64,000 nucleotides of DNA from contig JBNKKI010000092.1 of the NCBI GenBank assembly GCA_050291745.1, positions 13,103 through 77,102 of the forward strand, written 5' to 3'. Shown here one piece after another: positions 539 through 52,126 of the stretch. Numbering within the stretch: the first letter of the stretch is position 1; the number at the start of each line of letters is the position of its first letter. This stretch comes from Gammaproteobacteria bacterium (lineage in GTDB: Bacteria > Pseudomonadota > Gammaproteobacteria > GCA-001735895). The position numbers and the translations under genes were made by a program. The notes beneath the pieces were generated by a model. That model was not told the origin of the DNA. It ran no database searches and saw nothing but the letters and a program-made list of their open reading frames with translations.

Positions 539-773
539 CCTGGATTCCGCAGTTGACCGCTCGCAATAGAAGTTAACCTACTGTTTCATAAACCATTACA
601 GTTGATATGTATAATCACCCAATAGGTGAATCCCGCTACGAACTGAATTGCACGTTTGAGGCATCGTATCTCTTCGTTGTAACTCCTTGGAATAGCTGGC
701 TATTCCGCGTCGCTACGCCTTGATCTACACCACCTCAAACGCACAATCAGCTCGTCCAACTGCGGATTCTAGG
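539..773 (+). repeat. MITE-like repeat, copy A (long subtype, about 235 bp) with terminal inverted repeats and a central hairpin
   Basis: Left end CCTGGATTCCGCAGTTGACCG, right end CGTCCAACTGCGGATTCTAGG (inverted); internal hairpin GGAATAGCtggCTATTCC; near-identical to 51678..51913 and inverted relative to 9466..9677 and 36181..36381. Confidence 0.85.
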
Positions 774-874
774 ATGATGATACTTTTAAATAATGACTAA
801 AGTTACAATAGTAAATGATTTCAGTTAAAGTGAAACTGAACTTATATAAATCAAACTATGGCCCTGTTATATTT

Positions 875-1240
875 TCAGGATACTAGCTTAAGCGTTGCTG
901 ATACGGATAGACCAAATACTTGCATGGTCACCCATCCAAGAATCATGACTAATATTGAAATTAAAATACTGCCAACAAATTGAACTTCTAATGCAATACT
1001 ATATGCAAGTGCCTGAGCTAAAAAGACTATTATTGGTGCAATAATGGTTATAGGACCACCAACAGAGCCTAGAAAAATTAATGAAAGAACAGAAAAAAAG
1101 AAAGCGTAGATAATAGCTTTAAACGATTTTGAAAGTGGAACTTTTGTTTTAGTAACTATAGAAGCACTAGTTTGTACGATCAATGCCGAAATAATGAGAA
1201 ATGCCGCAATAATCAAAAGTGCTTTAAGTGGTAATGCCAA
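875..1240 (-). CDS. small hydrophobic membrane protein of unknown function (about 4 TM)
   Basis: 121 aa ORF, almost entirely hydrophobic segments; no recognisable motif. Confidence 0.45.
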   Translation of the reverse strand: MALPLKALLIIAAFLIISALIVQTSASIVTKTKVPLSKSFKAIIYAFFFSVLSLIFLGSVGGPITIIAPIIVFLAQALAYSIALEVQFVGSILISILVMILGWVTMQVFGLSVSATLKLVS

Positions 1241-1662
1241 AAACAGGATCAGTAAAGTTAATCCTCCGAGTAAATAATGCCTATGTGCTCCTTGTTTAAA
1301 TATAGATAAATATCAGTAAGTTAAATAGCTGAAACCTCTGTGTGAGCAATGTGATACTCAGAAAGTAACAGAGCCTTTAGATGTCCTTGATAATGTGAGT
1401 AACTAAATTGTTTGTTCACTGAAGGAATAAAGGTTTTTTGTAACCAGGTTTTGAAATACTCACATGGCTTTTTAGGTGAGTTTTATAATGATGTTGTAGT
1501 TCCTTCACATTTATATATCCCGCTTTTAAAATTCAATGTATTGCAGAAGCCCCGGTGAGAAAATCTTTTCAGGCTAATAAGACATCTTTTAATCTACCAC
1601 AATTTATGTGTGAAGTTAATACTCTATTCATCATCATTCAATTTAGCTATTGGAAAGGAACT

Positions 1663-2409
1663 TTATTTTTCAGATGAGCAAACTGGACAGCTAGGGTTTT
1701 TGGGTATTTGAACTTGTTGCCATTGCATGTTCAGTGCATCAAATAATAATAATTTCCCAGTTATTTCTTCACTATTATTTGTTAAAACCAGCAAAGCCTG
1801 CAGGGCCTGGAAGGTTCCCATAATTCCGACTACCGGACCAAGAACGCCTTCCATCTCACAGGTTTGAGCATTCTCATATTCTCCGTTATATACACACTGG
1901 TAACAGGGGGTGTTAGTGTCTGGTATATAGCTCATGATTTGACCTTCCATACGAATTGCAGCAGCTGAGATGAGTGGTGTTTTAGTTTTGACACATAAAC
2001 GATTAACAGCAAAACGGGTAGGGAAGTTATCACTGCAATCCAGCACTATATCCGATTGAGATATGTAATGCTCAAGCTCTTCCTGATCAAGTTCATGATC
2101 GATCATATCTACTTTACAATCAGGATTAATGGAAACAATAGTTTGCTTAGCTGAATGTGTCTTCAGGTCACCAATAGTTGCAGTTTGATGGATAATTTGT
2201 CTTTGTAAATTAGATTCTTCAACTACATCATAGTCACTAATAATTAAGTGACCGACCCCAGCTGCAGCCAGGTACATTGCAGCAGGAGATCCTAAACCGC
2301 CCATTCCAATCATTAATATATTGCTATGTAAGATTTTATTTTGACCATCTTCACCTATTTGAGGTAATTTTATCTGCCGATCAAAACGTAATTTCTGTGC
2401 TGGTGTCAT
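1663..2409 (-). CDS. MoeB/ThiF/HesA-family E1-like adenylyltransferase
   Basis: Gly-rich nucleotide loop MIGMGGLGSPAAMYLAAAGVG, C-terminal CxxC...CxxC (PCYQC, CPVC) zinc motif; last gene of the AOR operon. Confidence 0.85.
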   Translation of the reverse strand: MTPAQKLRFDRQIKLPQIGEDGQNKILHSNILMIGMGGLGSPAAMYLAAAGVGHLIISDYDVVEESNLQRQIIHQTATIGDLKTHSAKQTIVSINPDCKVDMIDHELDQEELEHYISQSDIVLDCSDNFPTRFAVNRLCVKTKTPLISAAAIRMEGQIMSYIPDTNTPCYQCVYNGEYENAQTCEMEGVLGPVVGIMGTFQALQALLVLTNNSEEITGKLLLFDALNMQWQQVQIPKNPSCPVCSSEK

Positions 2410-2429
2410 AAGATATTCTGGTTGGTCAT

Positions 2430-2744
2430 TTAACCACCACCTTTATGAAAGTATTTGAAAAATTTATCAAAAAAGAAATCAGACTGCTCTTTTGTTGCTG
2501 ACGTAACTGAAAAACTTACTAGTAATACTGGAAGTGAAATTGCTCCAAGGGTTCTTGGAGGCTGTAATTGAGCTTCAATCTGAACAATCATTGAAGAATT
2601 TTTATGGGAAATTGTCCAGCTATTTTGTTTTTCTGAGAGACATTCAAGTTCTGAATGTTCGCCAGTAAAATTACCGTGGATAACATTATTAAATTCAGTT
2701 CTGGTATAACCCATGTCATATTGATATTTAATTGCTTCACTCAT
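2430..2744 (-). CDS. hypothetical 104 aa protein ending in -GGG, in the AOR/E1 operon
   Basis: ORF ends ...FHKGGG*; lies between the MoaD-like gene and the E1-like gene with 14-20 nt gaps; no motif recognised. Confidence 0.5.
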   Translation of the reverse strand: MSEAIKYQYDMGYTRTEFNNVIHGNFTGEHSELECLSEKQNSWTISHKNSSMIVQIEAQLQPPRTLGAISLPVLLVSFSVTSATKEQSDFFFDKFFKYFHKGGG

Positions 2745-2758
2745 GCAAAAGCCATCAA

Positions 2759-3010
2759 TTAACCACCTGCTACTGGTGGCCAGATTGATATAGTATCACC
2801 GGTTAGCAAGGTTTTATTTTTACGATCATCTCCACATACAAATAGGCCATTAAGCAATACGATATGAGCCTGTTCGTCAGTTATTTTAAAAGATTCAATC
2901 AACTGTTGTACTGTGGTTGAATCATCGATATTAATTTCTCTTCGAAAACGTTGATTGCCTGGAGGTAGTAAATGCATAAGTGATGCATATAATTCGATAT
3001 ATATTTTCAT
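2759..3010 (-). CDS. MoaD/ThiS-family ubiquitin-like sulfur-carrier protein
   Basis: 83 aa, C-terminus ...WPPVAGG* (Gly-Gly end), adjacent to the E1-like enzyme. Confidence 0.8.
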   Translation of the reverse strand: MKIYIELYASLMHLLPPGNQRFRREINIDDSTTVQQLIESFKITDEQAHIVLLNGLFVCGDDRKNKTLLTGDTISIWPPVAGG

Positions 3011-3015
3011 TGAAT

Positions 3016-4263
3016 TTAATTGAATTCCTGAGTACAGGACATATAGGCTTCCATAAGTTGAGTAGGATCCTGCATTAATCTGTCTTTCCAGATTCCCAGC
3101 TTTAAACGTGTTTCAATGAGACCTCTCAAAATGCCAATATGCTGTGTTAATCCTGTACAACTAGCACCGATAAGAATATCGTCTTCAAATTGCAGGTTTA
3201 AATATCGATAATCCTGTTCATTAAAAATTTCTACTGAATCACCACCATCAATGCCCATCCAGCTTCCAAAGGAACAGGAAATAAGCCCCAGTGTATCGAG
3301 GACATTCATATTGAGTGATCCTTGGTGATTTACTTTTTTTCCACACATATTCAGAGCTGCGATTCTACCATGATCGGTTGCTGTAGGCTGGATAGCCTGT
3401 ACCTCATGATCTCCTGAAGAAAAATCAAGTGCCTGAGCGACATCACCGGCTGCATAAATATTGGGGTTACTGCTTTGCAGGTATTGATTCACCAGAATTC
3501 CTTTATCAATTTGTATTTCGGTATTTTCGAGGAAATCAGTATTTGACATAACACCTGTTGCTGTTATCACAAGATCGGCTGGTAATAATTGACCATCAGA
3601 TAATTTGACTGAATATGAACCATTGCTATCTTTGATTATAGAGTCGATTTTACTGGAAGTCTTGACATTGATACCTTTATCTATACACCAGGATTTTATC
3701 AGGCCACCCGCTTTGTCATTGAGCATCCGGGGAACCATGCGATTGCCTGCTTCAACAACGGTTAAATTAATGCCACGTTTTAGTAATGACTCAAGGATAA
3801 TACAACCGATAAAACCTGCACCAATTAAAACGACATTAGAGCCAGGTTGAGCTAGTTGAATAATGTCACGAGCATCCTGTAGTGTCCAGCAACTGTGGAC
3901 TATATCCAGTTCAATACCTGGTATAGGTGGTGTATAAGGTTTCGAACCAGTTGAAATTAATAATTTATCGTAATGTATGTTATTAGTACTTTGCAAAATA
4001 ACCAACTGTGCTGTTGTATCGATACTGGTTACAGTATCCTGGATAATATTGATGTTTAAAGCGGCAAAATGTGTAGATGGATCACGTATATAAGTGCCTG
4101 CCTGTTCGATTTTTCCCTCCAGGAAATAGGGAATTGCCATTCGAGAATAGGGAGGCTCAGGCTCACTGCCAATGATGGTGATTTCAGCATCCTGATTATT
4201 CTTTCTGAGTGTTTCAGCTGCGATTACACCGGCTGTACCGGCACCGATTATGAGGAAATGCAT
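3016..4263 (-). CDS. FAD-dependent pyridine-nucleotide-disulfide oxidoreductase family protein (AorC-like NAD(P)H-binding subunit)
   Basis: Two Rossmann motifs (IIGAGTAGV near the N-terminus; VLIGAGFIGC mid-protein); immediately downstream of AOR. Confidence 0.8.
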   Translation of the reverse strand: MHFLIIGAGTAGVIAAETLRKNNQDAEITIIGSEPEPPYSRMAIPYFLEGKIEQAGTYIRDPSTHFAALNINIIQDTVTSIDTTAQLVILQSTNNIHYDKLLISTGSKPYTPPIPGIELDIVHSCWTLQDARDIIQLAQPGSNVVLIGAGFIGCIILESLLKRGINLTVVEAGNRMVPRMLNDKAGGLIKSWCIDKGINVKTSSKIDSIIKDSNGSYSVKLSDGQLLPADLVITATGVMSNTDFLENTEIQIDKGILVNQYLQSSNPNIYAAGDVAQALDFSSGDHEVQAIQPTATDHGRIAALNMCGKKVNHQGSLNMNVLDTLGLISCSFGSWMGIDGGDSVEIFNEQDYRYLNLQFEDDILIGASCTGLTQHIGILRGLIETRLKLGIWKDRLMQDPTQLMEAYMSCTQEFN

Positions 4264-4338
4264 AGGATTTCTCTTTGGTTCGTTATTATTTTATTTAAAG
4301 CTCATCCGGGTAATATTCCCCGGATGAGCTTTAGTTTA

Positions 4339-6189
4339 TTAAAGAGACAGGCGCTGTTTGGTCTCCTGAGTTATCTCACCTTTATCCGTCCATCCTCTAA
4401 TTTCATAATAATGAGGTAGCATTTCACCTAAACGATTAACCTGTCCTTCAGTTGGTCCACTTTTAATGGCTTCTTCCAGAAGTCTCTTTGGTAACTTGTC
4501 ATCATCTGATGTAAAACCGGCTTTATTATTAAATTGCCGTTCCAGATTCCAAACTCGCTCACCAACCTCAAGACATTTTTCAACGCTCCAGTCACCAGCG
4601 CAAGCACCATCAATTTGTGGTGCAATATTATCCATTCCCCAGGCAAAAGTGGTGAAAAGGCAGATTCCAGCAGAATCAACAAGTGCAGTCGCATCCTGAA
4701 AAGCTTTTACCAGTTCAGGCTTACCATCGGTATCTGTCTGTTCGGTTTTTACAGGAATGCCAAGAATTTCTGAGGCAATGGTATAACCCCGAACATGGCA
4801 GGCTCCACGGTTGGAAGTGGCATAGTTTAGACCTATTCCCTGTATCCCTCGAGGGTCGTAAGCCGGAAATTCCTGTCCCTTCACATGCATTGCTAATTCC
4901 GGGTGACCATATTTTTCACAAAGTCTTTTTGAGCCTAGAGCCAGATCTTTACCAAAGCCTTTTCCACTTACCAGTGCTTCAACCGCTGCCACAAAAGCTT
5001 TTGCTGAACCAAATTTTAATTCTATTCCGCCAGTATTTTCTAAAGTTAGAATACCATCTTCAAACATTTCCATTGCTGCAGCAAGAGTACAGCCAAAAGT
5101 AATAGGGTCAAAGCCATCTTCATTACATAGAAAATTGGCATAAGTTAATGCATCCAGATCATCTACGCCCGTATCAGCACCGAGCGCCCAGGCTGCTTCA
5201 TACTCAAGACCACCAGATGCACCCCAGTATTCAGGTTTATTTTCAACTGAGAAATGTCCTTTATCAATAGTCGATATACGACCACAGGCAATAGTGCATC
5301 CAAAGCAACCGGCATTCGTGGTTAGATTGGCTTTACCATCACTAGCACGAAGTTCATGCATTGCTTCTCCGGAAATATTTCCCGCACCTTCGAATCCAAC
5401 ATCTTTCATGTTTCGTGCAGGTAGACCACCGACTCCATTAATAACATTCATCAATACCTGTGTGCCATAAGCAGGTAAACCTTCTCCAGTAACCGCATTT
5501 TCTGCGAGTACGGCTTTGCCGGCATTTACAGCTTCAATAAATTTTGGCATGTCATCAATGTTACCAACTCCCAAAGTGCCTCTTACTGCAACAGCTTTAA
5601 GATTTTTGGATGCCATCACTGTACCAACACCAGAGCGACCTGCAGCTCGATGTTTATCGTTGATTACGGCTGAATAAAGACAACCGGCTTCAGCTGTTCT
5701 ACCAACACAGGCTATACGAATTTGGGGGTCCTGATGAATTTTATGCAGGATATCATCCGTCTCCCAGGCTGATTTACCCCAGAGAGTTTTAGCAGAGCGA
5801 AGTTCTGCTTTATCATTTTCTATCCATAGATAGACAGGTTTTTCTGATTTACCTTCAAAAATAAGCATATCCCATCCGGCATTTTTAAATTCAGCTCCCA
5901 GAAAACCTCCAGAGTTTGAACAGGCGATAGCGCCAGTTAGTGGGCCTTTAGTGATAACTGAGTAACGACCGGCGGTTGAAGCCATGGTTCCAGTCAAAGG
6001 TCCCGTCGCCATGATTAATTTATTATCAGGGCCTAGTGGGTCGCAGGTTGGATCAACTTCTTCACTCAGATATTTAGAAGCAAGACCTCGCTGACCAAGG
6101 TATTCATCAGCCCATTGCATATTTAAGGGCTCAGCTGTACAGGTTCCTTCAGTGAGGTTTACGCGTAATATTTTTCTTGTCCAGGACAT
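4339..6189 (-). CDS. aor: tungsten/molybdenum-pterin aldehyde:ferredoxin oxidoreductase (AOR family)
   Basis: 616 aa; N-terminal MSWTRKILRVNLTEG... and cysteine-containing stretches as in AOR; flanked by a polyferredoxin and MoaD/MoeB-like genes. Confidence 0.85.
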   Translation of the reverse strand: MSWTRKILRVNLTEGTCTAEPLNMQWADEYLGQRGLASKYLSEEVDPTCDPLGPDNKLIMATGPLTGTMASTAGRYSVITKGPLTGAIACSNSGGFLGAEFKNAGWDMLIFEGKSEKPVYLWIENDKAELRSAKTLWGKSAWETDDILHKIHQDPQIRIACVGRTAEAGCLYSAVINDKHRAAGRSGVGTVMASKNLKAVAVRGTLGVGNIDDMPKFIEAVNAGKAVLAENAVTGEGLPAYGTQVLMNVINGVGGLPARNMKDVGFEGAGNISGEAMHELRASDGKANLTTNAGCFGCTIACGRISTIDKGHFSVENKPEYWGASGGLEYEAAWALGADTGVDDLDALTYANFLCNEDGFDPITFGCTLAAAMEMFEDGILTLENTGGIELKFGSAKAFVAAVEALVSGKGFGKDLALGSKRLCEKYGHPELAMHVKGQEFPAYDPRGIQGIGLNYATSNRGACHVRGYTIASEILGIPVKTEQTDTDGKPELVKAFQDATALVDSAGICLFTTFAWGMDNIAPQIDGACAGDWSVEKCLEVGERVWNLERQFNNKAGFTSDDDKLPKRLLEEAIKSGPTEGQVNRLGEMLPHYYEIRGWTDKGEITQETKQRLSL

Positions 6190-6205
6190 TTTTTATCTCC
6201 TCAAT

Positions 6206-6691
6206 TCAAGATGCAGCTGTTTCAGCGGCAGGTAAACTTTTAGAAGCTGAAGCTAGCATACGATTATATCCAGTCCAGTCTGAATCGATATAAGTGATGG
6301 CTGCAGTAGGGCAGGCTTTTGCACAGGCAGGGTCTCCACCACAGAGATCACATTTCACGACTTTACCCGTTGCCTGGGAATAATTGATTGTTCCAAAAGG
6401 ACAGGCGATGGTGCAGACTTTACATCCAACACATTTATCATCAGACACTACTTTGGCACCGGTTGATACGTCTAAACTAATGGCATTGACAGGACAGGCG
6501 CGTTGACACCAGGCTTCATCACATTGTGTACAGGTATAAGGGGCAAATCTGCCTTCATGATGGAAGGTAAAAACTTTAATAAATGATCGAGAGGGATTGA
6601 ATAAACCGGTATGTTCATAAGAACAGGCCAATTCACATTGAAGGCATCCGGTACATTTCACCGGATCAATATGTAAAGATTTTTGCATCAT
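6206..6691 (-). CDS. 4x[4Fe-4S] polyferredoxin, electron-transfer subunit (AorA-like)
   Basis: Four CxxCxxCxxxCP clusters in 161 aa; first gene of the operon. Confidence 0.85.
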   Translation of the reverse strand: MMQKSLHIDPVKCTGCLQCELACSYEHTGLFNPSRSFIKVFTFHHEGRFAPYTCTQCDEAWCQRACPVNAISLDVSTGAKVVSDDKCVGCKVCTIACPFGTINYSQATGKVVKCDLCGGDPACAKACPTAAITYIDSDWTGYNRMLASASKSLPAAETAAS

Positions 6692-7014
6692 CTTCTCCTG
6701 GCTTTGGATTATAATTGTATTGTTTTTTGATTTTACATAAATATCGCCTTATATGTTAATAAAAATATTCTATAAATGGTTTTTTATAGTTATAAAATAC
6801 TACTAAATAAGGGGTTTATACTTTGTCTGGCGTCTTAAAATGACTGCTGATAGAGGAAATATAACTGATATATTTTCAAACTGAATATTACTGCCAGTTT
6901 TAAACATGAGTTAGATAAAAATTTCGTTATCGATTGTTCTTCTATAAAATGCCTGATTTTTTTTACAAATGTGAATTCCTGATGTTACACAAAGTTCAAT
7001 TATATCAATAGACT

Positions 7015-7719
7015 ATGGATACTTTATATGAAGCTACACGAGATGCATTTATGCTACTATTCAGTGGGGATCCGGAAATATGGGGTATCATTGGCATATC
7101 ATTTCGTGTTTCAACTATAGCAATTCTGTGTGCTATTCCTCCGGGTATAATGACAGCTTTTATACTGGCTCATTTCAGGTTTCCAGGTAGAAATCTTTTA
7201 ATATCTATATTTAGTGCATTATTGTCTGTACCTGCCGTAGTTGTTGGGCTGACTTTATTCATACTTTTATCCCGGCAGGGACCTTTTGGTGATTTTAGAT
7301 TATTGTTTACCCAGTCTGCGATGGTGATGGGACAATTTCTGTTAAGTTATCCAATTCTGGTTTCTATGTCTCTGGCTGCCATCCAGTCTGTTGATAATCG
7401 TGCCTGGGAAACTGCCAGAACTTTAGGTGCTAATCCCATTCAAGCTTTGTTGACACTCATGTATGAAGTTCGTTTTGGATTACTGACAGCATTGCTAGCT
7501 GGCTATGGACGTATTATTGCCGAAGTTGGCGCTTCTATGATGCTTGGTGGTAATATTATGCATTACACGAGAAATATTCCGACGGCCATTGCTCTTGAAA
7601 CCAGTAAAGGGAATTTTGCTCAGGGTATGGCGCTTGGCATTGTACTTGTCATTTTATCTTTTTTATTAAATGCTTTTCTTCACTCAATGGATCATAAATC
7701 TTCTACGGCTAATTCTTGA
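7015..7719 (+). CDS. ABC-transporter permease, ModB/TupB/CysT-type (molybdate/tungstate/sulfate class); no partner genes nearby
   Basis: About 5-6 TM; EAA-loop ETARTLGANPIQALLTLMYEVRFGLLTALLAGYGRIIAEVGASMMLGG; no binding-protein or ATPase gene adjacent. Confidence 0.6.
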   Translation: MDTLYEATRDAFMLLFSGDPEIWGIIGISFRVSTIAILCAIPPGIMTAFILAHFRFPGRNLLISIFSALLSVPAVVVGLTLFILLSRQGPFGDFRLLFTQSAMVMGQFLLSYPILVSMSLAAIQSVDNRAWETARTLGANPIQALLTLMYEVRFGLLTALLAGYGRIIAEVGASMMLGGNIMHYTRNIPTAIALETSKGNFAQGMALGIVLVILSFLLNAFLHSMDHKSSTANS

Positions 7720-7951
7720 TTTAGAGTTAATTATTATTCAGTTGAATTTTTCCTATATGGATTCGATGGCATTTAGAGCAGTCAGTGTTACCAAAAATTA
7801 TTGTTAATTTATCAGTATAAAAAACTATAACGATTCAATCCAAATCCGATATCTGATAACTAGAAAAATAAATAAATAGTTTTAAAAACAGCTAATATTT
7901 ATTTAACAGACCATAAAATATTTAAAAAAAGAGTTAAACAGGGAGAAACCT

Positions 7952-9337
7952 ATGTCTGAAAACACATTTGAAATATATTATTATGACGGTATAAAAGCTG
8001 GTCTGGATAAACAGGAAGTCATTCAAAAACTAGCTGCATTACTAAAGCTTCCTGAAGATAAGTCTGAACGAATAATCTCATCCTTCAATCGCGTCATTAG
8101 AAGCGGACTTACTCGAGAACAGGCTGAAAAATATCTTTATGCGCTTGATAATATTGGTTTACAGGTAAGAATGCAGACTCTTCAGGGTCAGGGTCAGGGT
8201 CAGGGTGAGGATGAGGTACCTTCCTCAGCTGAAAAAGATCAGCAGAAAGTTAAATCAGAGCAACCGGCGCAAACTGGTAAAAAACAGGTGGATTCTTCTT
8301 TAAAGGGTAAATCTCAACTTAATCAGACAAAAGATTTTGATCATTCCAGTAAAAGTGTTGCTGTTAAATTTAATGGAACTGGAATGGAATATTTCAAAAT
8401 CTGGATTGTAAATATTTTTCTGACGATTATTACTTTGGGTATATATTCTGCCTGGGCCAAAGTGCGAAATAAGCAATATTTTTATGGTAATACCATTATT
8501 GATGGTAGCAGTTTTCAATACACTGCAACACCGATTACAATTTTAAAAGGCCGTGTTATTGCTGTAGCTATATTTATTCTATACAGCCTGATTGTTAATT
8601 TGCTACCTTTACTGGGGCTTTTGCTTATGCTTATTTTAATCGGCTTTATACCCTGGCTAATCGTAAGATCACTGGCGTTCAATGCTCGTAACAGTATGTA
8701 TAGAAATATTCGTTTCAATTTTACCGGAAAAGCGATTGATGCTTTTAAAGTTTTTATACTTTGGCCTATTTTAATTATCTTTACCTTTGGATTAATTACA
8801 CCTCTAATCTGGTATAAACAAACCAGTTTCATCGTCAGTAATAGTGCTTATGGCGCTACTTCATTTAACTTCAACACATTGGTCGGTAAATATTTCAATA
8901 TATTTTTCATCGCTCTGGGTGGTTTATTCGGGGCGGGTATTCTACTTTCCTTTTTAACAACCATAGCAGGACCAGCGCTTGTAGTGGTTATTTCTCCGTT
9001 GTTTACATTAACTTATATTGTCTTCTTTGCGTACCTGACAACAGCTTTATCTAATTTACAATTCAATTCTACACATCTTGTCCAACATGGGTTTACTTCT
9101 TCTCTCAAAGTAAGTCAGGTAAGCTGGATATATTTCACCAATATTTTACTTATAATTTTAAGCCTTGGTTTAATGATTCCCTGGGCTATGGTCAGAATGG
9201 CTAGATATCGAGCTGAATGTCTCAGTTTACAGGTACAGGGATCAGTTGATAATTTTATCGCTGTAGAACAACAAAAAGTATCTGCTCTGGGTGACGAATT
9301 AAGTGGCGTGTTTGATGTGGAAGTTTCCTTTATATGA
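7952..9337 (+). CDS. DUF898 (YjgN-like) polytopic inner-membrane protein with a cytoplasmic N-terminal extension
   Basis: Threefold repeated TLGIYSAWAKVR / GLITPLIWYK / GLMIPWAMVR modules with following aromatic/Gly stretch; N-terminal approx. 130 aa Lys/Ser/Gln-rich with a QGQGQGQG run. Confidence 0.6.
   Translation: MSENTFEIYYYDGIKAGLDKQEVIQKLAALLKLPEDKSERIISSFNRVIRSGLTREQAEKYLYALDNIGLQVRMQTLQGQGQGQGEDEVPSSAEKDQQKVKSEQPAQTGKKQVDSSLKGKSQLNQTKDFDHSSKSVAVKFNGTGMEYFKIWIVNIFLTIITLGIYSAWAKVRNKQYFYGNTIIDGSSFQYTATPITILKGRVIAVAIFILYSLIVNLLPLLGLLLMLILIGFIPWLIVRSLAFNARNSMYRNIRFNFTGKAIDAFKVFILWPILIIFTFGLITPLIWYKQTSFIVSNSAYGATSFNFNTLVGKYFNIFFIALGGLFGAGILLSFLTTIAGPALVVVISPLFTLTYIVFFAYLTTALSNLQFNSTHLVQHGFTSSLKVSQVSWIYFTNILLIILSLGLMIPWAMVRMARYRAECLSLQVQGSVDNFIAVEQQKVSALGDELSGVFDVEVSFI
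8183..8206 (+). repeat. in-frame hexanucleotide repeat (CAGGGT)x4 encoding QGQGQGQG inside the DUF898 gene
   Basis: Four perfect tandem CAGGGT units seen directly. Confidence 0.9.
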
Positions 9338-9465
9338 TATCGATTCAGGGACCGTTCTTTTCAAACAGGAGGTCTCGTCGTCAAGCTTCTATATTAGCTT
9401 TCAATCAGTATGATCAGGTCGAAGTTTTTAATGATCAATGAAAATCATGAGTGACATCAAGTCAA

Positions 9466-9677
9466 CCTGGAATTCGCAGTTGGACGAGTTGATTGTGCGT
9501 TTGAGGTAGTGTAGATCTAGGCGTTACAACGAAGAGATACGCCGCCTCACACTTGCAATTCAGTTCGTAGCAGTATGCACCGATTGGGCGATTTTTCCAG
9601 GATTATACACACCAACTGTCATGGTTTATGAAACAGTGGGTTAACCGCTATTGCGAGCGGTCAACTGCGGAATCCAG
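9466..9677 (-). repeat. MITE-like repeat, copy B (short subtype, about 212 bp; central hairpin deleted, about 11 nt insertion)
   Basis: CCTGGAATTCGCAGTTGGACGAG...CGAGCGGTCAACTGCGGAATCCAG; inverted orientation relative to copy A. Confidence 0.85.
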
Positions 9678-10208
9678 ATTCATGTAGAGTTTCTCCGCGC
9701 CTGAGTAATACAACTCGTTACATTTTATTCAACAATGACGATTATTTCGAAACTCTCAGACGTAAAATATTTACACAGCATTACGTGCATAGTATGAACC
9801 GTCTGCAAGTTGAAAAAAATCGGAATTTAGATACGACAGTAAAAACTGATATTGAGAAACAAACGCTTAAAAAATATTCATCTTATCTTTCTAGGTTGAA
9901 ACACCGAAGCGAATTAAACGGTTTCTGGAGCTTGATAAGTAATCTATTACAAATTTAAGATATGGAAAATTGTATTAATCTTTGCAATATACTGATATTA
10001 ATGTATTTTAACTTTGAGGAACCCTTGATTAATGCCGGATCCAGAGAGTAGTGTGATGAAATGTTTCTGGACGCGACTAAAAGTGCAGGTAAATGCCAGT
10101 TATTACAAAACTTTTCAAGGTGGAATTGAAATTTTTGACCACTATTCACCTGTTCGCGTATTAATGAGAGATTCCACTATTAACACTTAATTTAAGAGTA
10201 CAGTTTCT

Positions 10209-36180: not shown

Positions 36181-36381
36181 CCTGGAATGCGCAGTTGGAC
36201 GAGTTGATTGTGCGTTTGAGGTAGGTAGATCAAGGCGTTACAACGAAGAGATATGCCGCTTCAAACCTGCAATTCAATTCGTAGCAGGATGCACCGATTG
36301 GGTGATTATAAATATCAACTGTCATGGTCTATGAAACAGTGGCTTAACCTCTATTGCGAGCGGTCAACTACGGAATCCTGG
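36181..36381 (-). repeat. MITE-like repeat, copy C (short subtype, about 201 bp)
   Basis: CCTGGAATGCGCAGTTGGACGAG...CGAGCGGTCAACTACGGAATCCTGG; lacks the central hairpin seen in copies A and D. Confidence 0.85.
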
Positions 36382-36413: not shown

Positions 36414-36446
36414 AAAAAAAACGACGGTCAAGACCGTCGTTTTTTA
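36414..36446. terminator. bidirectional Rho-independent terminator (after the rhodanese gene on - ; abuts MITE copy C)
   Basis: AAAAAAA-ACGACGGTcaagACCGTCGT-TTTTT: 8 bp GC-rich stem flanked by A and T runs. Confidence 0.8.
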
Positions 36447-44364: not shown

Positions 44365-46140
44365 TTGCAACCATTAGATCAAAAACTCTCCGGGAAAAAA
44401 GCCTATAAAGCTTTGGTTATCATGGCTTTAGAGTTTAGATCCTATTTTTTTCTAGCGATTATCGGGATGATTGTTTTTGCTCTTTCCGAGGCATCTTTTG
44501 CGTATTTAATGAAACCAATGCTGGATGAGGGATTTATCAATCGAGATGAATTTATTCTTAAAATCATACCTTTTGCTATCGTATTGATATTTATTGTTCG
44601 CATGGTGGCTTCTTTCGTACGAACTTATTGTATGGCATTTATAGGGCGTCAGGTTATCAATAAGCTGCGTAATCAAATGTTTGACAAGCTGTTGACCATG
44701 TCTACGACTGAATATGATAAAGCTTCCAGCGGTTCCATCATAACCAGATTTTCATTTGATATTGAACAGATAGCAGCCTCGGTATCAACAGCTTTAACGA
44801 CTTTTATTCAGGATTCGTTGCGGATTGTTGTATTGATGAGTTATATGCTCTGGTTAAGCTGGCAATTATCCGCAATTTTTCTAACTGTTGGCCCGTTAGT
44901 ATTTTTTATTGTGGTAAAAGTATCCGGACGGTTTAGAAAAATCAGTAAGAATATACAAAAATCCATGGGAGAAGTCTCACATATTTCTCAGGAAGTGATT
45001 GATTCTAACAGGGTAGTGAAAATATTTGGTGGTGAACAATTCGAATCGAAAAAATTTGCAGTAATAAATCAGAAAAATCTCAGGCTAAATCTGAAATTGA
45101 CCACTGCCCAGGCAATCAGTATGCCACTAATCCAGCTGATTGTTGCGGTTGCCTTTGCTGTTATTATCGCTTTTGCTACTTCAGACTCGATGCAAAATCA
45201 TATTACCTCCGGCGATTTTATTTCTTTCATATTCGCATTAACCAGTCTATTACAGCCTATGCGTAGTCTGTCAACTGTGAATGAAAAAATTCAAAAGGGA
45301 ATAGCGGCTGGTGAATCTGTATTTGAATTTCTGGCTAAACCTGAAGAACAAGACAATGGTTCTAAACATATCGAAAAAGCCAGCGGTATGCTTGAGTTTA
45401 AACAAATAACATTTAGTTATCCGGAGCATGAAAATAAGGTACTGGATAATGTCAATTTTAAAGTTTATCCAGGCCAAACTATTGCTATAGTCGGACGCTC
45501 AGGCAGTGGTAAATCAACTCTGGCTAATTTATTACCACGTCTGTATGAATTGACTGATGGTCAAATTATTATGGATGATTTCGATATACGCGACTATACA
45601 CTGGCCGATCTTCGCAGACAGATTGCCTATGTTGGACAGGATGTGCGCTTATTCAACGATACTATAAGAAATAATATTGCCTATGGCGTGTTAAATGGCG
45701 CTGATGAATCATTAATTATTGATGCTGCCAAACAGTCATATGCCTGGGAATTTATTCAAAGAATGCCTCAGGGTCTGGATACAGTGGTTGGTGAGAAAGG
45801 GGTTTTACTGTCTGGTGGACAACGACAGCGACTGGCTATTGCAAGGGCTTTATTAAAAGATTCCCCTATTCTTATTCTGGATGAAGCTACATCTGCGCTG
45901 GATACTGAATCTGAGCGTCATATACAATATGCGATTCAAAACTTGATTACAAATCGTACAACACTGGTTATAGCGCATCGTTTATCTACTATAGAGCATG
46001 CTGATTTAATTCTGGTTTTGCAGGATGGTGTTATAGTAGAGCAGGGCAATCATCGTGAATTAATTGAAATTGATGGTATTTATGGTCGATTACATGCTAT
46101 GCAATTTGCCGATGAAAAACCTACTGTTATTGAAAACTGA
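44365..46140 (+). CDS. msbA: lipid A export ABC transporter MsbA
   Basis: 6 TM plus NBD (Walker A GRSGSGKST, LSGGQRQRLAIARAL, ILDEATSALD); followed by lpxK and kdsB as in E. coli. Confidence 0.9.
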   Translation: MQPLDQKLSGKKAYKALVIMALEFRSYFFLAIIGMIVFALSEASFAYLMKPMLDEGFINRDEFILKIIPFAIVLIFIVRMVASFVRTYCMAFIGRQVINKLRNQMFDKLLTMSTTEYDKASSGSIITRFSFDIEQIAASVSTALTTFIQDSLRIVVLMSYMLWLSWQLSAIFLTVGPLVFFIVVKVSGRFRKISKNIQKSMGEVSHISQEVIDSNRVVKIFGGEQFESKKFAVINQKNLRLNLKLTTAQAISMPLIQLIVAVAFAVIIAFATSDSMQNHITSGDFISFIFALTSLLQPMRSLSTVNEKIQKGIAAGESVFEFLAKPEEQDNGSKHIEKASGMLEFKQITFSYPEHENKVLDNVNFKVYPGQTIAIVGRSGSGKSTLANLLPRLYELTDGQIIMDDFDIRDYTLADLRRQIAYVGQDVRLFNDTIRNNIAYGVLNGADESLIIDAAKQSYAWEFIQRMPQGLDTVVGEKGVLLSGGQRQRLAIARALLKDSPILILDEATSALDTESERHIQYAIQNLITNRTTLVIAHRLSTIEHADLILVLQDGVIVEQGNHRELIEIDGIYGRLHAMQFADEKPTVIEN

Positions 46141-46157
46141 TTTAATACATTTAAATA

Positions 46158-47138
46158 ATGTCGCTGTCTACTAGACAAACAGGCTGGTGGTTATGGAGTT
46201 ATAACCCTGTTTCCCTGATTTTATGGCCATTTTCATTACTCTTTTGCCTATTGGTAAAAATTCGCTTTCAACTTTATCGTTGGCAATTGCTGAAAAGTGA
46301 AAAACTACCCATTCCTGTCATAGTCGTGGGTAATATATCTTTAGGAGGTAATGGTAAAACTCCCTTCGTAGTCAGTCTGGTTAAATTTTTACAACGACAT
46401 AATTATAACCCCGCCATTCTAACTCGAGGTTATAAAAGTGATCATGAACAGGAAACAACGATTCTCAGTCAGGGGCTGATATCGAATCGAGCAGGTGATG
46501 AAGCAAATATGTTATCTGAACTCTGTGCCTGTCCTGTGGGAGTAGGTGCTAACAGGGTTAGTTCAGCAACCGCTTTAATCGAACAATTTCCACAGATCAA
46601 TATCCTGGTTACCGATGATGGACTGCAACATTACGCTTTACAACGGGATTTAGAAATTATTGTACAACGTAAAGCAGCTTATGGTAATGGTTTCTGTTTA
46701 CCGGCGGGACCACTAAGAGAAGCGCGAAGTCGATTACAGAATTCTGATCTGGTGGTTGATCGTGATGGACATGATTTGAGCGAAACATTGACTAGCTGCT
46801 GGAATTTGAATCATCCCGAACAGGTTTGTGAATTAACTGATTTTAAACAGCAGAAAGTCAATGCTCTGGCAGGCATAGGTTTTCCGGAACTTTTTTTCGA
46901 ACTCTTGCGCAAATATGGGTTGCAGGTGAATGGTAGATCTTTTCGTGATCATGAAACTTTTACCCGACAGGATTTACTTGAGTTTAAAGATGCACCATTA
47001 TTGGTTACTCATAAAGATGCTGTAAAATTACGACCTTTCGCCACCGATAATATTTGGGTGGTTCCACTCGAATTAATCCTGTCAGATGATTTACAATGTC
47101 GTCTGTTAACACTTATAGAGTTAAAACTAAATGGATAA
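46158..47138 (+). CDS. lpxK: tetraacyldisaccharide 4'-kinase LpxK
   Basis: [15 protein letters not shown]-loop, about 326 aa; synteny msbA-lpxK. Confidence 0.9.
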
Positions 47139-47316
47139 ACATTTATTAGATATTTTAGTTGATCCGGTCACTAAGGGGCCGTTGACTTACGATAAAAAAA
47201 ATCAGGAATTACTATCCCGTAGTTCCCGTCTGGCTTATCCCATTCGTGATGGCATACCGGTTATGCTGCCGGAAGAAGCCCGTGAAATGACTGCTGAAGA
47301 AGTCGAAAAGTTTTGA
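47131..47316 (+). CDS. ycaR: Trm112/YcaR-family small protein (DUF343)
   Basis: 61 aa, [14 protein letters not shown]...IRDGIPVML; conserved position between lpxK and kdsB. Confidence 0.8.
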
Positions 47317-48056
47317 TCAATAATAAATTTAAAGTTGTTATACCTGCACGTTATGCCTCCACCCGGTTGCCAGGTAAACCTTTAATCAATATTCTGGGTA
47401 AACCTATGATCGAGTGGGTTTATCAGGCTGCAATTGCCAGTGAAGCTCAACAGGTGATAGTAGCAACTGACGATGAACGTATTAAATCAGCCGTTGAATC
47501 ATTCGGTGGACAATGCTGTAAAACTTCAAATGATCACCAGACAGGAACTGATCGTATAGTTGAAGTGACCGAGTTGATGGAATGGTCGGATGAAGAGATC
47601 ATAGTTAATCTACAGGGTGACGAACCATTAATGCCGGCAGAAAATTTGACTCAGGTTGCTAATAATCTGGTTAAATCTGGATATGAAATGGCTACCTTGC
47701 ATAAACAAGTTACCTCATTAGCCGCAGATGACCCGAATCTGGTTAAGCTGGTCAGTGATAAAAATGGCAGGGCTTTATATTTTAGTCGCAGTAAGATTCC
47801 ATTTGAGAGAGAATTTCCACAGGTTAGTTACACTGGTCATATAGGCCTTTATGCTTATCGAGTTGGTTTTTTAAGAAAATATGCCTGCTTAAAGCCCTGT
47901 ATGTTAGAGCAAAGTGAAAAGCTGGAACAACTTCGAGCTCTTTATTATGGCTTTAATATTCATACTGAGCAGGCAATAAAATTACCGGGAATCGGTGTTG
48001 ATACTGAACAGGACCTGATACAGGTGACAAAACAATTAGAAAAAATGAATCAATGA
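47313..48056 (+). CDS. kdsB: 3-deoxy-manno-octulosonate cytidylyltransferase KdsB
   Basis: N-terminal [16 protein letters not shown], 247 aa. Confidence 0.9.
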
Positions 48057-48649
48057 AATATCAATGGAAAGTTATCAATCACGAAATCATCTTCCAGGGT
48101 TATTTTCGGATGGAAAAATATGAACTTCAGCATGAGAAATATGCTGGAGGATGGACTGACACTTTTCAACGTGAAATATTTGAAAGGGGTTCAGCTGTCG
48201 CTGTTTTACCTTATGACCCGATTCTTGACAGAGTTGTATTAATTGAACAATTCAGAGTTGGCGGTATTGGTACGATAGATCCACCCTGGATGAAAGAAAT
48301 TGTCGCAGGCATTATCGAACCAGGCGAAACTCACCAGGATGTGGCCGAACGAGAGACTCTGGAAGAGGCTGGCTGCCATATAAAACAACTGGAAAAAATC
48401 ACCCAATTTTATGTTAGCCCGGGCGGTACCACTGAGCAATGTATTTTATTTTGTGGTCGGGTAGATAGTAAAGATGTTGGCGGTATTTATGGGCTTGATC
48501 ATGAATTTGAAGATATTCAGGTAGAAAGCGTCGATTTAAAGCAGGCTGAAGCCTGGTTACAGGATGGTACAATCAGTTCAGCCCCCAGTATTATTGCATT
48601 GCAATGGTTACTTTTGAACAGAGATCGATTACGCAAGGAATGGATATGA
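48053..48649 (+). CDS. nudF: ADP-ribose pyrophosphatase (Nudix hydrolase NudF-like)
   Basis: Nudix box GIIEPGETHQDVAERETLEEAG. Confidence 0.8.
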   Translation: MKYQWKVINHEIIFQGYFRMEKYELQHEKYAGGWTDTFQREIFERGSAVAVLPYDPILDRVVLIEQFRVGGIGTIDPPWMKEIVAGIIEPGETHQDVAERETLEEAGCHIKQLEKITQFYVSPGGTTEQCILFCGRVDSKDVGGIYGLDHEFEDIQVESVDLKQAEAWLQDGTISSAPSIIALQWLLLNRDRLRKEWI

Positions 48650-48689
48650 CAGTATCACTGAATAGCTTAAACTTACTCAGGAAAATATT

Positions 48690-49463
48690 TTGGAATTAGG
48701 CGGTTTTTCTATAGAAATCCTGCTTTTTTTAATCAGCATTTCAATTATTGCCGGACTCCTTGATACGCTGGCGGGTGGTGGTGGCTTACTGTCATTACCG
48801 GCACTCATTGTCAGTGGTATTCCGCCACTGGCCGCTTTGGGAACCAATAAATTACAGGGTAGTATGGGTACGGCGACAGCAACATTGATGATGTTTAGGA
48901 AGAGGAAAGTTCATTTTCAGGATGTGAAGTTGTTAATGCTTTCTGCCTTTATAGGGTCTGCGGCGGGGTCGATTGCAGTTCAATTTATGGATACTGAATT
49001 ACTGAATTTTATTGTGCCTGGAATTCTTATCCTGATTGCTATTTATTTTCTGTTATCTCCCAGAGCCAATGAGATTGAGACTAAGCAAAAAATATCACAA
49101 AAAAAATATCAAACACTGATTGTACCTGCTATAGGCTGGTATGACGGTATGTTTGGACCAGGGACAGGGTCTTTTTTTGCGCTTGCTGGTGTCTCACTTC
49201 AGGGTTATGGTTTAATAAATTCAACAGCTATTGCTAAATCACTTAATTTTTCAACCAATTTTGCATCCTTAGTGATTTTCCTGATGGCTGGCAAAGTAGT
49301 CTGGATTGTTGGATTACTCATGATGTTAGGGCAATTTATAGGTGCCTGGATCGGCTCTCATTTATTATTTAAAATTAACCCTCAAATTCTCAAATTTATC
49401 ATTGTTATCATGTGCCTTGGAATGCTGTTCAGGTATTTTCTTGAAAAAGGATGGATCAGCTAA
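48690..49463 (+). CDS. TauE/SafE-family (DUF81) membrane permease
   Basis: 257 aa, 7-8 TM with duplicated halves and the ...LGTNKLQG... region. Confidence 0.65.
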   Translation: MELGGFSIEILLFLISISIIAGLLDTLAGGGGLLSLPALIVSGIPPLAALGTNKLQGSMGTATATLMMFRKRKVHFQDVKLLMLSAFIGSAAGSIAVQFMDTELLNFIVPGILILIAIYFLLSPRANEIETKQKISQKKYQTLIVPAIGWYDGMFGPGTGSFFALAGVSLQGYGLINSTAIAKSLNFSTNFASLVIFLMAGKVVWIVGLLMMLGQFIGAWIGSHLLFKINPQILKFIIVIMCLGMLFRYFLEKGWIS

Positions 49464-49467
49464 GTTC

Positions 49468-50415
49468 TCAACGCAAAAACTCTTCCACAACCGCTGGCCA
49501 GGCAAGTGTAATATTGTCCATATTATATCCACCTCCACCAAGTCCTAAAACTCTTCCATCACAAATTTCATCAGCTATTTTGCACAGACTTTGAGCTGCA
49601 TGGCGGTAAGATTTTTCGGTATATTCAAGATGTGTAATAGGATCGCCTTTTAAACTATCTGCGCCACATTGCAGGATGATGAATTGTGGTTCCATTGATC
49701 GAATAAAGTCTTCTGCTATTGCCCACTCTCTGAAAAAATCCTCATCTTTGGCATGTTTTGGCATAGGTATATTCATTTTATAACCTTTTGCAGGACCTGT
49801 ACCAGTTTCATCGGCATCGCCTGTCCCTGGATATAAATATCGGCCATCTTCATGAAAGTCTACAATAATGACACCGGTATCTGATTCATAGTTGTAATAG
49901 ACTCCGTCACCATGATGCGCATCAATATCGACATATAACACTCTCTCAAGATTATATTTGTCACGCAAATGTTCTATGACGATTGAGCAATCATTAAATA
50001 TACAGAAACCACTACAGTGATCCTTATAGCCATGATGTAATCCGGCAATAGGAACGAAGCCCCGACGAATTTCTTTATTCATAATTCTGTCGGAAATATC
50101 TATCACAGAGCCAACCACAAAAGAAGCTGCTTCATAGATACCATCACGAGCTGGTGTATCACCATGATCAAGAAAACCTTTACCCTGTGCCGAACCCTGA
50201 ATTATCTTTTCGATATAATCTTCAGTATGAAAGCGCATTAAATCATGTAAATGGCAACGAACCGGGTTTAAATACTCAACCTGAGTAAATAAACCCGTGT
50301 TCAACATACCATTTATAAATGCCTGATGTCTTAAAGGGCCGAATGGGTGTTTATCTCCAAAATGATAATCGGCAAGTTCATCTCCAATAGAGATAGCTAC
50401 AGAAGTTTTTTTCAT
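49468..50415 (-). CDS. histone-deacetylase-superfamily protein (AcuC/acetylpolyamine amidohydrolase-like)
   Basis: DIDAHHGDG zinc-site motif, 315 aa. Confidence 0.8.
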   Translation of the reverse strand: MKKTSVAISIGDELADYHFGDKHPFGPLRHQAFINGMLNTGLFTQVEYLNPVRCHLHDLMRFHTEDYIEKIIQGSAQGKGFLDHGDTPARDGIYEAASFVVGSVIDISDRIMNKEIRRGFVPIAGLHHGYKDHCSGFCIFNDCSIVIEHLRDKYNLERVLYVDIDAHHGDGVYYNYESDTGVIIVDFHEDGRYLYPGTGDADETGTGPAKGYKMNIPMPKHAKDEDFFREWAIAEDFIRSMEPQFIILQCGADSLKGDPITHLEYTEKSYRHAAQSLCKIADEICDGRVLGLGGGGYNMDNITLAWPAVVEEFLR

Positions 50416-50573
50416 TTTTTCAGGATCTATTATTTGTTAATATATATTAATTCTTAATTTTTCTATTTTAATTATAAGTTTTTAGGAATAGGCTACACTA
50501 AATGAGCAAAAGTTACTTGAAATATATAAGATACCCTGTATATTAGCATAATCTAATATAGATATAAAATTAA

Positions 50574-51206
50574 ATGAATACAAATTTTCTTACAGAACTG
50601 GAATTCGAATTTTCCTTAAAACCATCTGACACTGAAGAATTTAGTGAATTGCTGGTTGATTTTAAAGGACAGGCTGTCATCTGGGATGATGATGCAGAAG
50701 AAAAAGTGATTGCCCAACTAAAAGGTCATCGACTGGATCTTGCCATTGCCCGAAGAAATTATGATGATATTCAGGAATTATTTGACTCTATTTCCCCTGA
50801 AATTTCTGATCTGGGTTCACATATTGTTTCAAATAATAATTGTTTTGTAGAATGTTGTAGTAAACAACAGGATGAGAAAACACCATGTGAGAGCCTGGTG
50901 TATATCGATGAGCTGGTTGTTGAAAAGGAATTTCGCAATCGTAAAATAGGTACCGAAATGCTCAAGCGAATGAGTCAGATTGTCGATATGAATAAGACAC
51001 TGGTTGCACTAAAGGCTTATCCAATAATTGATAAGGAAACTGAAGAGCGTACTCCTGAATTAAAAAAGCAGCTTAAACATTTTTATAGCAAACTTGGATT
51101 TCATCATTCGGGGGAACACTATATGGTTAAAGATGCCAGAGATTGTCATGCACAAAGAGTCAGAGCTTTGGCAGAAGAGGGTGTTGAATTAAGAATGACT
51201 TCCTGA
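50574..51206 (+). CDS. hypothetical protein with a GNAT-like acetyl-CoA-binding motif
   Basis: LVYIDELVVEKEFRNRKIGTEMLKRM resembles GNAT motif A (Q/RxxGxG/A). Confidence 0.4.
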   Translation: MNTNFLTELEFEFSLKPSDTEEFSELLVDFKGQAVIWDDDAEEKVIAQLKGHRLDLAIARRNYDDIQELFDSISPEISDLGSHIVSNNNCFVECCSKQQDEKTPCESLVYIDELVVEKEFRNRKIGTEMLKRMSQIVDMNKTLVALKAYPIIDKETEERTPELKKQLKHFYSKLGFHHSGEHYMVKDARDCHAQRVRALAEEGVELRMTS

Positions 51207-51244
51207 TGCCTGACCGCAAAGCCGTATTGTTCCAGATCTAAAGT

Positions 51245-51619
51245 TCAGCTTGAAAGAATGAAAGCAGCAAATACATTTCGATCTTCCGCAACCAGAATAT
51301 TATAAGTTCTACAAAGAGCCCCGGTATTCATCACATCTAAAGCAAAACCATTTTTAGCAAAGTAATGGTAAATTTCCTGAGCAGGAAAAATTTGCTTTTC
51401 GCCTGTACCTAATAAAATAACATCAGGTTTTAATTCAAAAATGCAATCGAAGTGTTCTGGTTTTAGCTCAGTTACAGCTTTAACAGACCAGGGCTGAATA
51501 ATTTTATTGGCTGAGAGTACCAGACTTTCCGAATAAATTCTTTCATTTACCGTAATTTGACCCTGTTCATAAGCCTGGATACTGTACCGGTTGGAGATAA
51601 TGTTTTCTGCTAATGCCAT
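51245..51619 (-). CDS. Mth938-like/DUF498 family protein
   Basis: 124 aa, ...PDVILLGTGEKQ... core typical of DUF498. Confidence 0.55.
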   Translation of the reverse strand: MALAENIISNRYSIQAYEQGQITVNERIYSESLVLSANKIIQPWSVKAVTELKPEHFDCIFELKPDVILLGTGEKQIFPAQEIYHYFAKNGFALDVMNTGALCRTYNILVAEDRNVFAAFILSS

Positions 51620-51677
51620 TTATGCAGAGTATAATATTTAAAGCGCTATATCCAGTAAATCCATTATAATTGAAGAT

Positions 51678-51913
51678 CCTGGATTCTGCAGTTGACCGCT
51701 CGCAATAGAGGTTAACCCACTGTTTCATAAACCATGACAGTTGATGTGTATAATTACCCAATCGGTGAATCCCGCTACGAACTGAATTGCAGGTTTGAGG
51801 CGGTGTATCTCTTCGTTGTAACGCCCAGGAATAGCAATCTATTCCGCGTCGTTGCGCCTTGATCTCCACCACCTCAAACGCTCACTTCAATTCGTCCAAC
51901 TGCGGATTCTAGG
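51678..51913 (+). repeat. MITE-like repeat, copy D (long subtype, about 236 bp, about 90% identical to copy A)
   Basis: CCTGGATTCTGCAGTTGACCG...CGTCCAACTGCGGATTCTAGG; central hairpin GGAATAGcaatCTATTCC. Confidence 0.85.
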
Positions 51914-52126
51914 ATGATGCCTGATACAGTAGCCTGATTATTTTGATATAGCCAATGTGTTAATAAATAATTCAGCTGTCGAATTAAAAACCCGGCCTTT
52001 AAATTCTCCAGTTTCCAGAAATAATCAATCGTATTTTTTGCACCAAAATTAAATAAACATTCTTCCAGTGATCCTGACCCTATGTTATGGTTGCCGGTCC
52101 ATTAACTTAACATTAGAGTAACTTCC

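Follow-up and report, generated by a model that had tools for sequence, protein, structure and literature searches.

[quoted passage not shown] Among much smaller elements, Correia elements carry 26-bp terminal inverted repeats (TIRs) and a TA duplication. Transposition of ISEcp1 yields 5-bp duplications, TATGA being one example (PMC2887853). [quoted passage not shown]

Here we analyse a repeat found in a stretch of 64,000 nucleotides (hereafter, the window) of a contig assigned to an uncultured gammaproteobacterium (JBNKKI010000092.1). Like the bacterial MITEs MaeMITEa-h of Microcystis and Correia/NEMIS of Neisseria, this repeat is about 200 bp long, is bounded by TIRs, has a strong hairpin potential, occurs as dispersed intergenic copies and falls into subfamilies that differ by indels, yet its sequence is unrelated to theirs, and in contrast to Correia/NEMIS its TIRs are 17-21 nt long and of a different sequence and its duplication measures 5 bp. 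Like the ERIC/IRU elements of enterobacteria, it is an imperfect intergenic palindrome, one to two hundred bp in length, in which internal insertions vary, but there is no sequence similarity to them and no Rfam match, and the repeat has clear IS-like TIRs and 5-bp duplications. A first-pass annotation of the window, made from the sequence alone, had likened the repeat to Correia or ERIC elements; this likeness holds as an analogy, whereas the ends and duplications that define those elements are not those seen here.

The ISEcp1 group shares with the repeat the terminal 9-10 nt (CCTAGATTC[C/T]), a palindrome placed 76-77 nt from the left terminus, a 5-bp duplication and AT-rich targets. The two differ in size and content (0.2 kb and no transposase gene, compared with ~1.65 kb for ISEcp1), at TIR positions 11-21 (GCAGTTGACCG in the repeat, ACGTCAGTAC in ISEcp1) and in the interior, where the repeat has a long hairpin that does not resemble the IS sequence. 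Below we present the evidence that the repeats are a non-coding MITE family, probably mobilised in trans by an ISEcp1-like (IS1380 family) transposase.

Four intergenic copies of the repeat in the window

The window holds exactly four copies of the repeat, which are 201-236 bp long, lie in both orientations and are all intergenic. Their number, places and orientations, as first annotated, were reproduced by alignment, by a TIR search and by a profile search: a profile built from 15 family members (nhmmer) gave four matches in the window and no further degenerate copies, and an 18-nt TIR core, allowing up to three mismatches, was found four times in the window, compared to zero times expected from 100 shuffles. 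A self-BLAST of the window revealed no second repeat family. The bounds of three copies were likewise reproduced, while the end of copy 2 was found to lie at 9678 and not at 9677. A whole-length alignment of the four copies with 20-nt flanks had a mean column identity of 81%, and the pairwise identities spanned 74-90%, a wider range than the 85-90% first reported. Copies 1 and 4 were 89.8% identical and copies 2 and 3 86.6%, while pairs of a long and a short copy reached 74-77%, owing to a 33-bp indel and not to base substitution.

Copy 1 (c1; 539..773, + strand, 235 bp) is a long form with an apical hairpin module and lies between convergent genes, namely a GGDEF-like ORF fragment ending at 223 and a 121-aa membrane ORF (875-1240, - strand). 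Copy 2 (c2; 9466..9678, - strand, 213 bp) is a short form that lacks the 33-bp module, and is located between a DUF898 gene (3' end at 9337) and a PAS-GGDEF-EAL gene starting at 10209. The first TIR base of c2 is mutated from C to T, and an 11-nt insertion follows its element nt 74. This insertion, AATCCTGGAAA (window 9588-9598, - strand), is found directly before the +77 palindrome described below, and in part it is similar to the terminus of the element itself (ATCCTGGA). Copy 3 (c3; 36181..36381, - strand, 201 bp), also a short form, is found downstream of a rhodanese-domain gene and precedes the start codon of mfd (36080, - strand) by 100 nt. Copy 4 (c4; 51678..51913, + strand, 236 bp) is a long form located in the spacer that separates alaT (+ strand, start 52127) from a divergent DUF498 gene (- strand, start 51619). 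Beyond c4 (window 51914-52100), ~150 nt have no counterpart in the 106-bp spacer found upstream of alaT in relatives.

The first-pass annotation had placed all copies between genes, and this was borne out: the sole ORF overlapping a copy is a 101-aa ORF with a GTG start (51567-51872), which spans the DUF498 start into c4 and seems to be no more than a by-product of listing ORFs mechanically. Around the copies lie common gammaproteobacterial housekeeping genes, namely mfd, alaT, moeB and the gene of the PAS-GGDEF-EAL protein, and the G+C content of the window is ~38%. Its alanine transaminase is 93-95% identical to proteins recorded as 'MAG: Gammaproteobacteria bacterium' and 83-84% identical to those of lucinid-clam symbionts and Thiohalomonas. 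Two further intergenic palindromes, perfect to near-perfect and 38 and 30 nt long (4296-4333 and 36416-36445), are probably transcription terminators; the second adjoins copy 3, downstream of the rhodanese gene.

Anatomy of the element and its variants

Read from its left end, the element is composed of a ~21-nt terminus (CCTAGATTCCGCAGTTGACCG), a conserved spacer of ~55 nt, a palindrome starting at position +77, a hairpin of ~115 nt and the right TIR, such that TIR, conserved spacer and palindrome make up a left arm (nt 1-95) and the imperfect hairpin covers nt 100-214. The two ends, as read, are CCTAGATTCCGCAGTTGACC and CCTAGAATCCGCAGTTGGAC. The TIRs are imperfect but kept in all copies, with 16 of the first 17 positions pairing and 18 of 21 overall. 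In c1, the left TIR (539..559, + strand) reads CCTGGATTCCGCAGTTGACCG, the family consensus being CCTAGATTCCGCAGTTGACCG, and the right TIR (753..773) reads CCTAGAATCCGCAGTTGGACG on the - strand and pairs with the left one at 16/17 positions. The subterminal palindrome of c1 is 15 nt long (TCACCCAATAGGTGA; 615..629, + strand) and starts at element position +77. The right half of the element is formed by an internal imperfect palindrome (638..752, + strand, in c1), the arms of which include CGTTTGAGG and CCTCAAACG. Internal inverted repeats had been noted before and are indeed present (CGTTTGAGG...CCTCAAACG), though the right arm is ACCTCAAACG and not GCCTCAAACG as first given.

The 33-bp apical hairpin module (ACTCCTTGGAATAGCTGGCTATTCCGCGTCGCT; 682..714, + strand, in c1) is found in copies 1 and 4 and is missing from copies 2 and 3, the deletion being bordered by the short direct repeats GTAACTCCTTG and GTTACGCCTTG. 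Change is concentrated at the tip of the hairpin, which carries optional modules. A 47-bp unit, TTGCCTATAGGGACATAGGTAAGGGGCGTGAGCAGGACGCGGAAGCC, was observed at the tip in 0, 1, 2.8 or 5.7 tandem copies, resembling a minisatellite (tandem units at L005:5799-6068 and L006:6444-6575; single copies in L010, L012, L013 and L007). One variant contains a 97-bp tandem duplication (L006:6190-6385), and a variant of 1007 bp (L005:5727-6733) holds a fragment of an IS256-type transposase gene (PF00872, Mutator family; L005:6282-6476). In several composite sub-variants, the left arm of the +77 palindrome is replaced by another module.

The element has no conserved ORF and no transposase gene, and its window copies, at 201-236 bp, fall below the ~600 bp usual for MITEs. 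Its sole internal ORF is a 38-aa frame in c1, which a stop interrupts in most copies; a small-protein reading was rejected, since this ORF is not kept in the other copies. An outward or inward promoter was rejected as well: the TATAAT at nt 69-74 lacks an acceptable -35, and the scan called neither a promoter nor a terminator inside the copies.

Target-site duplications border the copies

According to the first-pass annotation, no target-site duplication was obvious, yet duplications emerged when 19 elements with both ends, taken from the window and from related MAGs, were compared (15 full copies were aligned with their flanks). Direct repeats of 5 bp immediately outside the CC...GG termini were exact in 7/19 elements and agreed in at least four of the five positions in 14/19, the seven exact repeats being TTGAA, TTCAA, TTAAA (twice), ATGAA, ATGAT and TTGAA. 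Because the flanks share an AT-rich target consensus, WTNAW, the right flanks were permuted among the elements, which gave a mean of 2.2 exact matches, with seven being reached at P = 0.0015. The repeats are direct (ATGAT with ATGAT, and not with ATCAT), and therefore represent duplications and not an extension of the TIRs. In the window, c1 is bordered by an exact duplication, ATGAT (534-538 and 774-778), and the flanks of c4 (AAGAT/ATGAT) match in 4/5 positions; read in element orientation, those of c2 (ATGAA/TTGAC) match in 3/5 and those of c3 (ATGCC/ATGAC) in 4/5. With perfect duplications in only 7/19 elements and a divergence of 10-26% among the four window copies, the latter are old, and perhaps no longer able to move.

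Dispersal of the family and polymorphism at the DUF498-alaT locus

Searching a species-representative genome collection with a 19-mer of the element gave matches on at least 18 contigs, at least 17 of them in the MAG JBNKMF01 and at least one in JBNLGQ01, often within 40-75 nt of the contig ends. Thus, as first suggested, the repeat is in the genomes searched a dispersed family and not a local segmental duplication. Contigs ending inside copies are the usual signature of a multicopy repeat, and the same was seen in short-read (Logan) contigs of the window's own sample (SRR36185843), which are 100% identical to window positions 749-9495 and 45245-51707 and stop 25-30 nt inside c1, c2 and c4. 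The MAG copies are 92-98% alike, a likeness that suggests a recent burst there.

The DUF498-alaT locus was found in three states. In six related contigs (L021-L023, L029, L030 and L035) the spacer is 106 bp long and element-free; in the window it is occupied by c4 (+ strand); and in L031, the AlaT of which is 94% identical, it contains a 289-bp element of a sister subfamily (L031:2574-2862) in the orientation opposite to c4. The L031 subfamily shares with the family of the window its 20-23 nt ends and the palindrome at +77, while its interior and spacer are unrelated. This spacer looks like an insertion hot spot. At this locus no base-precise empty site was obtained from the relatives, whose spacers have diverged too far or hold another element.

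Two scans of viral contigs yielded one more MITE and one solo 21-mer. The former lies on an IMG/VR contig classed as viral (L118:~7600-7822, ~220 bp), is flanked by an exact ATCAT/ATCAT duplication, and has a left end reading CCTAGATTCCGCAGTTGG, a diverged right end and, at +55, the palindrome TCACCCAATAGGTGA. The latter is a 21-nt match to the left TIR of the MITE on a second viral contig (L119:7116-7136), placed in G+C-rich DNA with the rest of the element absent, and is probably a chance match or a remnant. A BLASTN search with c4 in distant mode against 72,556 plasmids gave no match.

The left end of the element resembles that of the ISEcp1 group

ISEcp1 was retrieved from plasmids via its transposase sequence and its ends were read. 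Its left inverted repeat (IRL) is CCTAGATTCTACGT (CCTAGATTCTACGTCAGTAC) and the reverse complement of its right inverted repeat (IRR) is CCTAAATTCCACGT (CCTAAATTCCACGTGTGT). For comparison we used 80 ISEcp1-like metagenome loci (L038-L117), with transposases 84-100% identical to that of ISEcp1. The IS ends of these metagenome elements take the form CCTAGATTCYACG, and those of the MITE the form CCTAGATTCCGCAG. The MITE end, CCTAGATTCC, matches the IRL of ISEcp1 at 9/9 positions and the reverse complement of its IRR at 13/18, and the IRL of one ISEcp1-like element (L081; CCTAGATTCCACGCG) equals the MITE terminus CCTAGATTCC over the first 10 nt.

When 15 distinct ISEcp1-like left ends were aligned, the stretch from the terminus to the promoter region of the transposase gene proved highly variable, the only blocks conserved in it, besides scattered single columns, being the 14-nt IRL and a 20-nt palindrome, TTTCACCCAWTGGGTGAAAG. 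The left end of ISEcp1 itself (L037:596-790) carries this palindrome. Across 20 distinct left ends of the ISEcp1 group, the TCACC of the palindrome starts at +76 (+75 in one of them), and in the MITE TCACCCAATCGGTGA starts at +77 in 14/15 core copies and also in the L031 subfamily. The motif common to both is the palindrome TCACCC-N3-GGTGA, at +77 in the MITE versus +76 in the ISEcp1-like elements, a criterion that was derived in this analysis and not taken from a publication; the string TTTCACCCAWTGGGTGAAAG was not found in a full-text literature search. In addition, the 5-bp duplications of the MITE, of the WTGAW type, fit the length of the ISEcp1 duplication and the 4-5 bp expected of the IS1380 family, the ends of which likewise begin with CC.

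When the MITE arms were aligned locally to the ISEcp1 ends with no anchoring, the result was not significant, the left-versus-left score being reached in 209/1000 shuffles, and the case for a relationship therefore rests on two short, position-specific islands together with the length of the duplication. By our estimates, this two-island match would be unlikely to arise by chance (~1e-6 for the 10-nt terminus, and ~1e-4 to 1e-6 for a palindrome within 1-2 nt of +76).

The MITE TIR, allowing up to five mismatches, was found in 0/80 ISEcp1-like loci, and tblastn with the ISEcp1 transposase revealed no IS1380-type transposase in the window or in L001-L019. An autonomous IS bounded by the MITE ends, CCTAGATTCCGCAGTTG...CAACTGCGGATTCTAGG, was not found in the window, in L001-L019, in the 80 ISEcp1-like loci or in the two viral-contig scans. 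The identity of the mobilising transposase is therefore an inference.

The flanks of the ISEcp1-like IS are AT-rich (TAnTA), but are of little use for comparing target preference, since exact repeats directly at IRL and IRR were present in only 2/41 metagenome copies, whereas the MITE carries its duplications directly at both ends. The low count in the ISEcp1-like copies is consistent with the use of surrogate right ends by ISEcp1 (PMC2887853). Transposases 83-90% identical to that of clinical ISEcp1 were found to be abundant in environmental metagenomes (P0121-P0240; L038-L117), including records that bear the names of Labilibaculum and ANME-2 archaeon MAGs, so that the ISEcp1 group extends widely beyond the plasmids of enterobacteria.

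Discussion

The first-pass annotation proposed that the repeats are a MITE family that it could not assign to any named one, and this proposal is supported by copies with defined ends, 5-bp duplications at their borders, dispersal over several genomes, presence or absence at one orthologous locus, the lack of RNA-type conservation, and a left end shared with the ISEcp1 group. In the mechanism that we consider probable, an ISEcp1-like IS would supply a DDE transposase in trans, and this enzyme would bind the terminal repeats, possibly recognise the +77 palindrome as well, and insert the MITE into AT-rich 5-bp targets (WTNAW), thereby duplicating them.

As an alternative, the first-pass annotation had offered a structured small-RNA gene family, in which the hairpins would be the transcribed and functional product. 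Folding of both strands is indeed far more favourable than that of shuffled sequences (+ strand, z = -5.2; - strand, z = -7.9), with additional G-U pairs in the - strand (-95 versus -72.5 kcal/mol), and a perfect TATAAT occupies element nt 69-74; the fold scores do not discriminate, however, because any long DNA palindrome folds well. A search of the window with Rfam 15 gave no match at gathering scores, and neither did the elements of L005, L008 and L031 at E <= 1. In the RNAalifold consensus of 15 copies, a double change was seen in 1/52 pairs, with that pair lying inside the TIR, the covariation term was unfavourable (+0.98), and the changes mostly break pairs. Given that the scan called neither promoter nor terminator inside the copies, and that a small-RNA family leaves unexplained the direct 5-bp border repeats, the orthologous presence and absence, the two orientations and the optional modules, we regard it as very improbable. 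Still harder to credit is that the copies are a local segmental duplication or a repeat maintained by the host, of the REP/BIME or ERIC kind, and not a transposable element at all. The intergenic position of all four window copies, none of which interrupts a gene, would suit this explanation, but the copies lie 9-27 kb apart in flanks unrelated to one another (self-BLAST), the family is present on at least 18 contigs of other genomes, 5-bp duplications border the copies, and the orthologous spacer is empty in relatives. REP units, moreover, are palindromes of 20-40 nt with neither TIRs nor duplications.

A further alternative accepts that the repeat is a MITE, but derives it from, or has it moved by, a transposon outside the IS1380 family, such as a Tn3-derived TIME or an IS256-type element. 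A 5-bp duplication is common to the Tn3 family (PMC2887853). The 1-kb variant (L005:5727-6733) contains an IS256-like (PF00872) fragment, and the true parent was not found in the loci searched; yet this fragment is present in one copy only, and is therefore taken to be a nested insertion. Tn3-family ends are ~38 bp long and begin with GGGG, and IS256-family elements make 8-9 bp duplications. The CCTAG ends of the repeat, at 17-21 nt and with 5-bp repeats, fit neither family: a Tn3-derived TIME would account for the length of the duplication, but its inverted repeats of ~38 bp with GGGG are not those seen here. Moreover, two separate islands match the left ends of the ISEcp1 group by position, which would be unlikely by chance. 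We thus consider a source outside the IS1380 family unlikely, and favour mobilisation by an ISEcp1-like transposase.

The palindrome at +76 in the ISEcp1 group may conceivably serve as a second cis-acting site for transposition, bound by the transposase or by a host factor, and not as a regulator of transposase expression, a tentative idea that we hold to be somewhat doubtful. It is suggested by the fact that a MITE, which has no gene to regulate, keeps the palindrome at the same distance from its terminus; on the other hand, the replacement of the left arm of the +77 palindrome in several sub-variants implies that the palindrome may not be required. If the idea is true, the left end of ISEcp1 would be bipartite, which would help explain why its left end is strictly used while surrogate right ends are freely accepted.

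The family is apparently undescribed, being absent from Rfam and from the literature searched: four TIR strings had no match in a full-text search, and no described IS1380-derived MITE was found in a literature represented mostly by titles and abstracts. As a genome parasite the element is unremarkable, being of the same kind as many known bacterial MITEs. For the uncultured gammaproteobacterial lineage that carries it, the family explains the fragmentation of short-read assemblies, with contigs ending inside copies. The copies also mark rapidly changing intergenic spacers, including those just upstream of mfd and alaT, and provide presence/absence markers for strain typing. The family may still be active and may affect neighbouring genes, for instance if transcription of mfd or alaT runs through the element and so places a strong hairpin in their 5' leaders. 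Beyond this lineage, the family appears, from the comparison of its ends, to be tied to the IS1380 family, and the same comparison points to a conserved left-end palindrome in ISEcp1-group elements.
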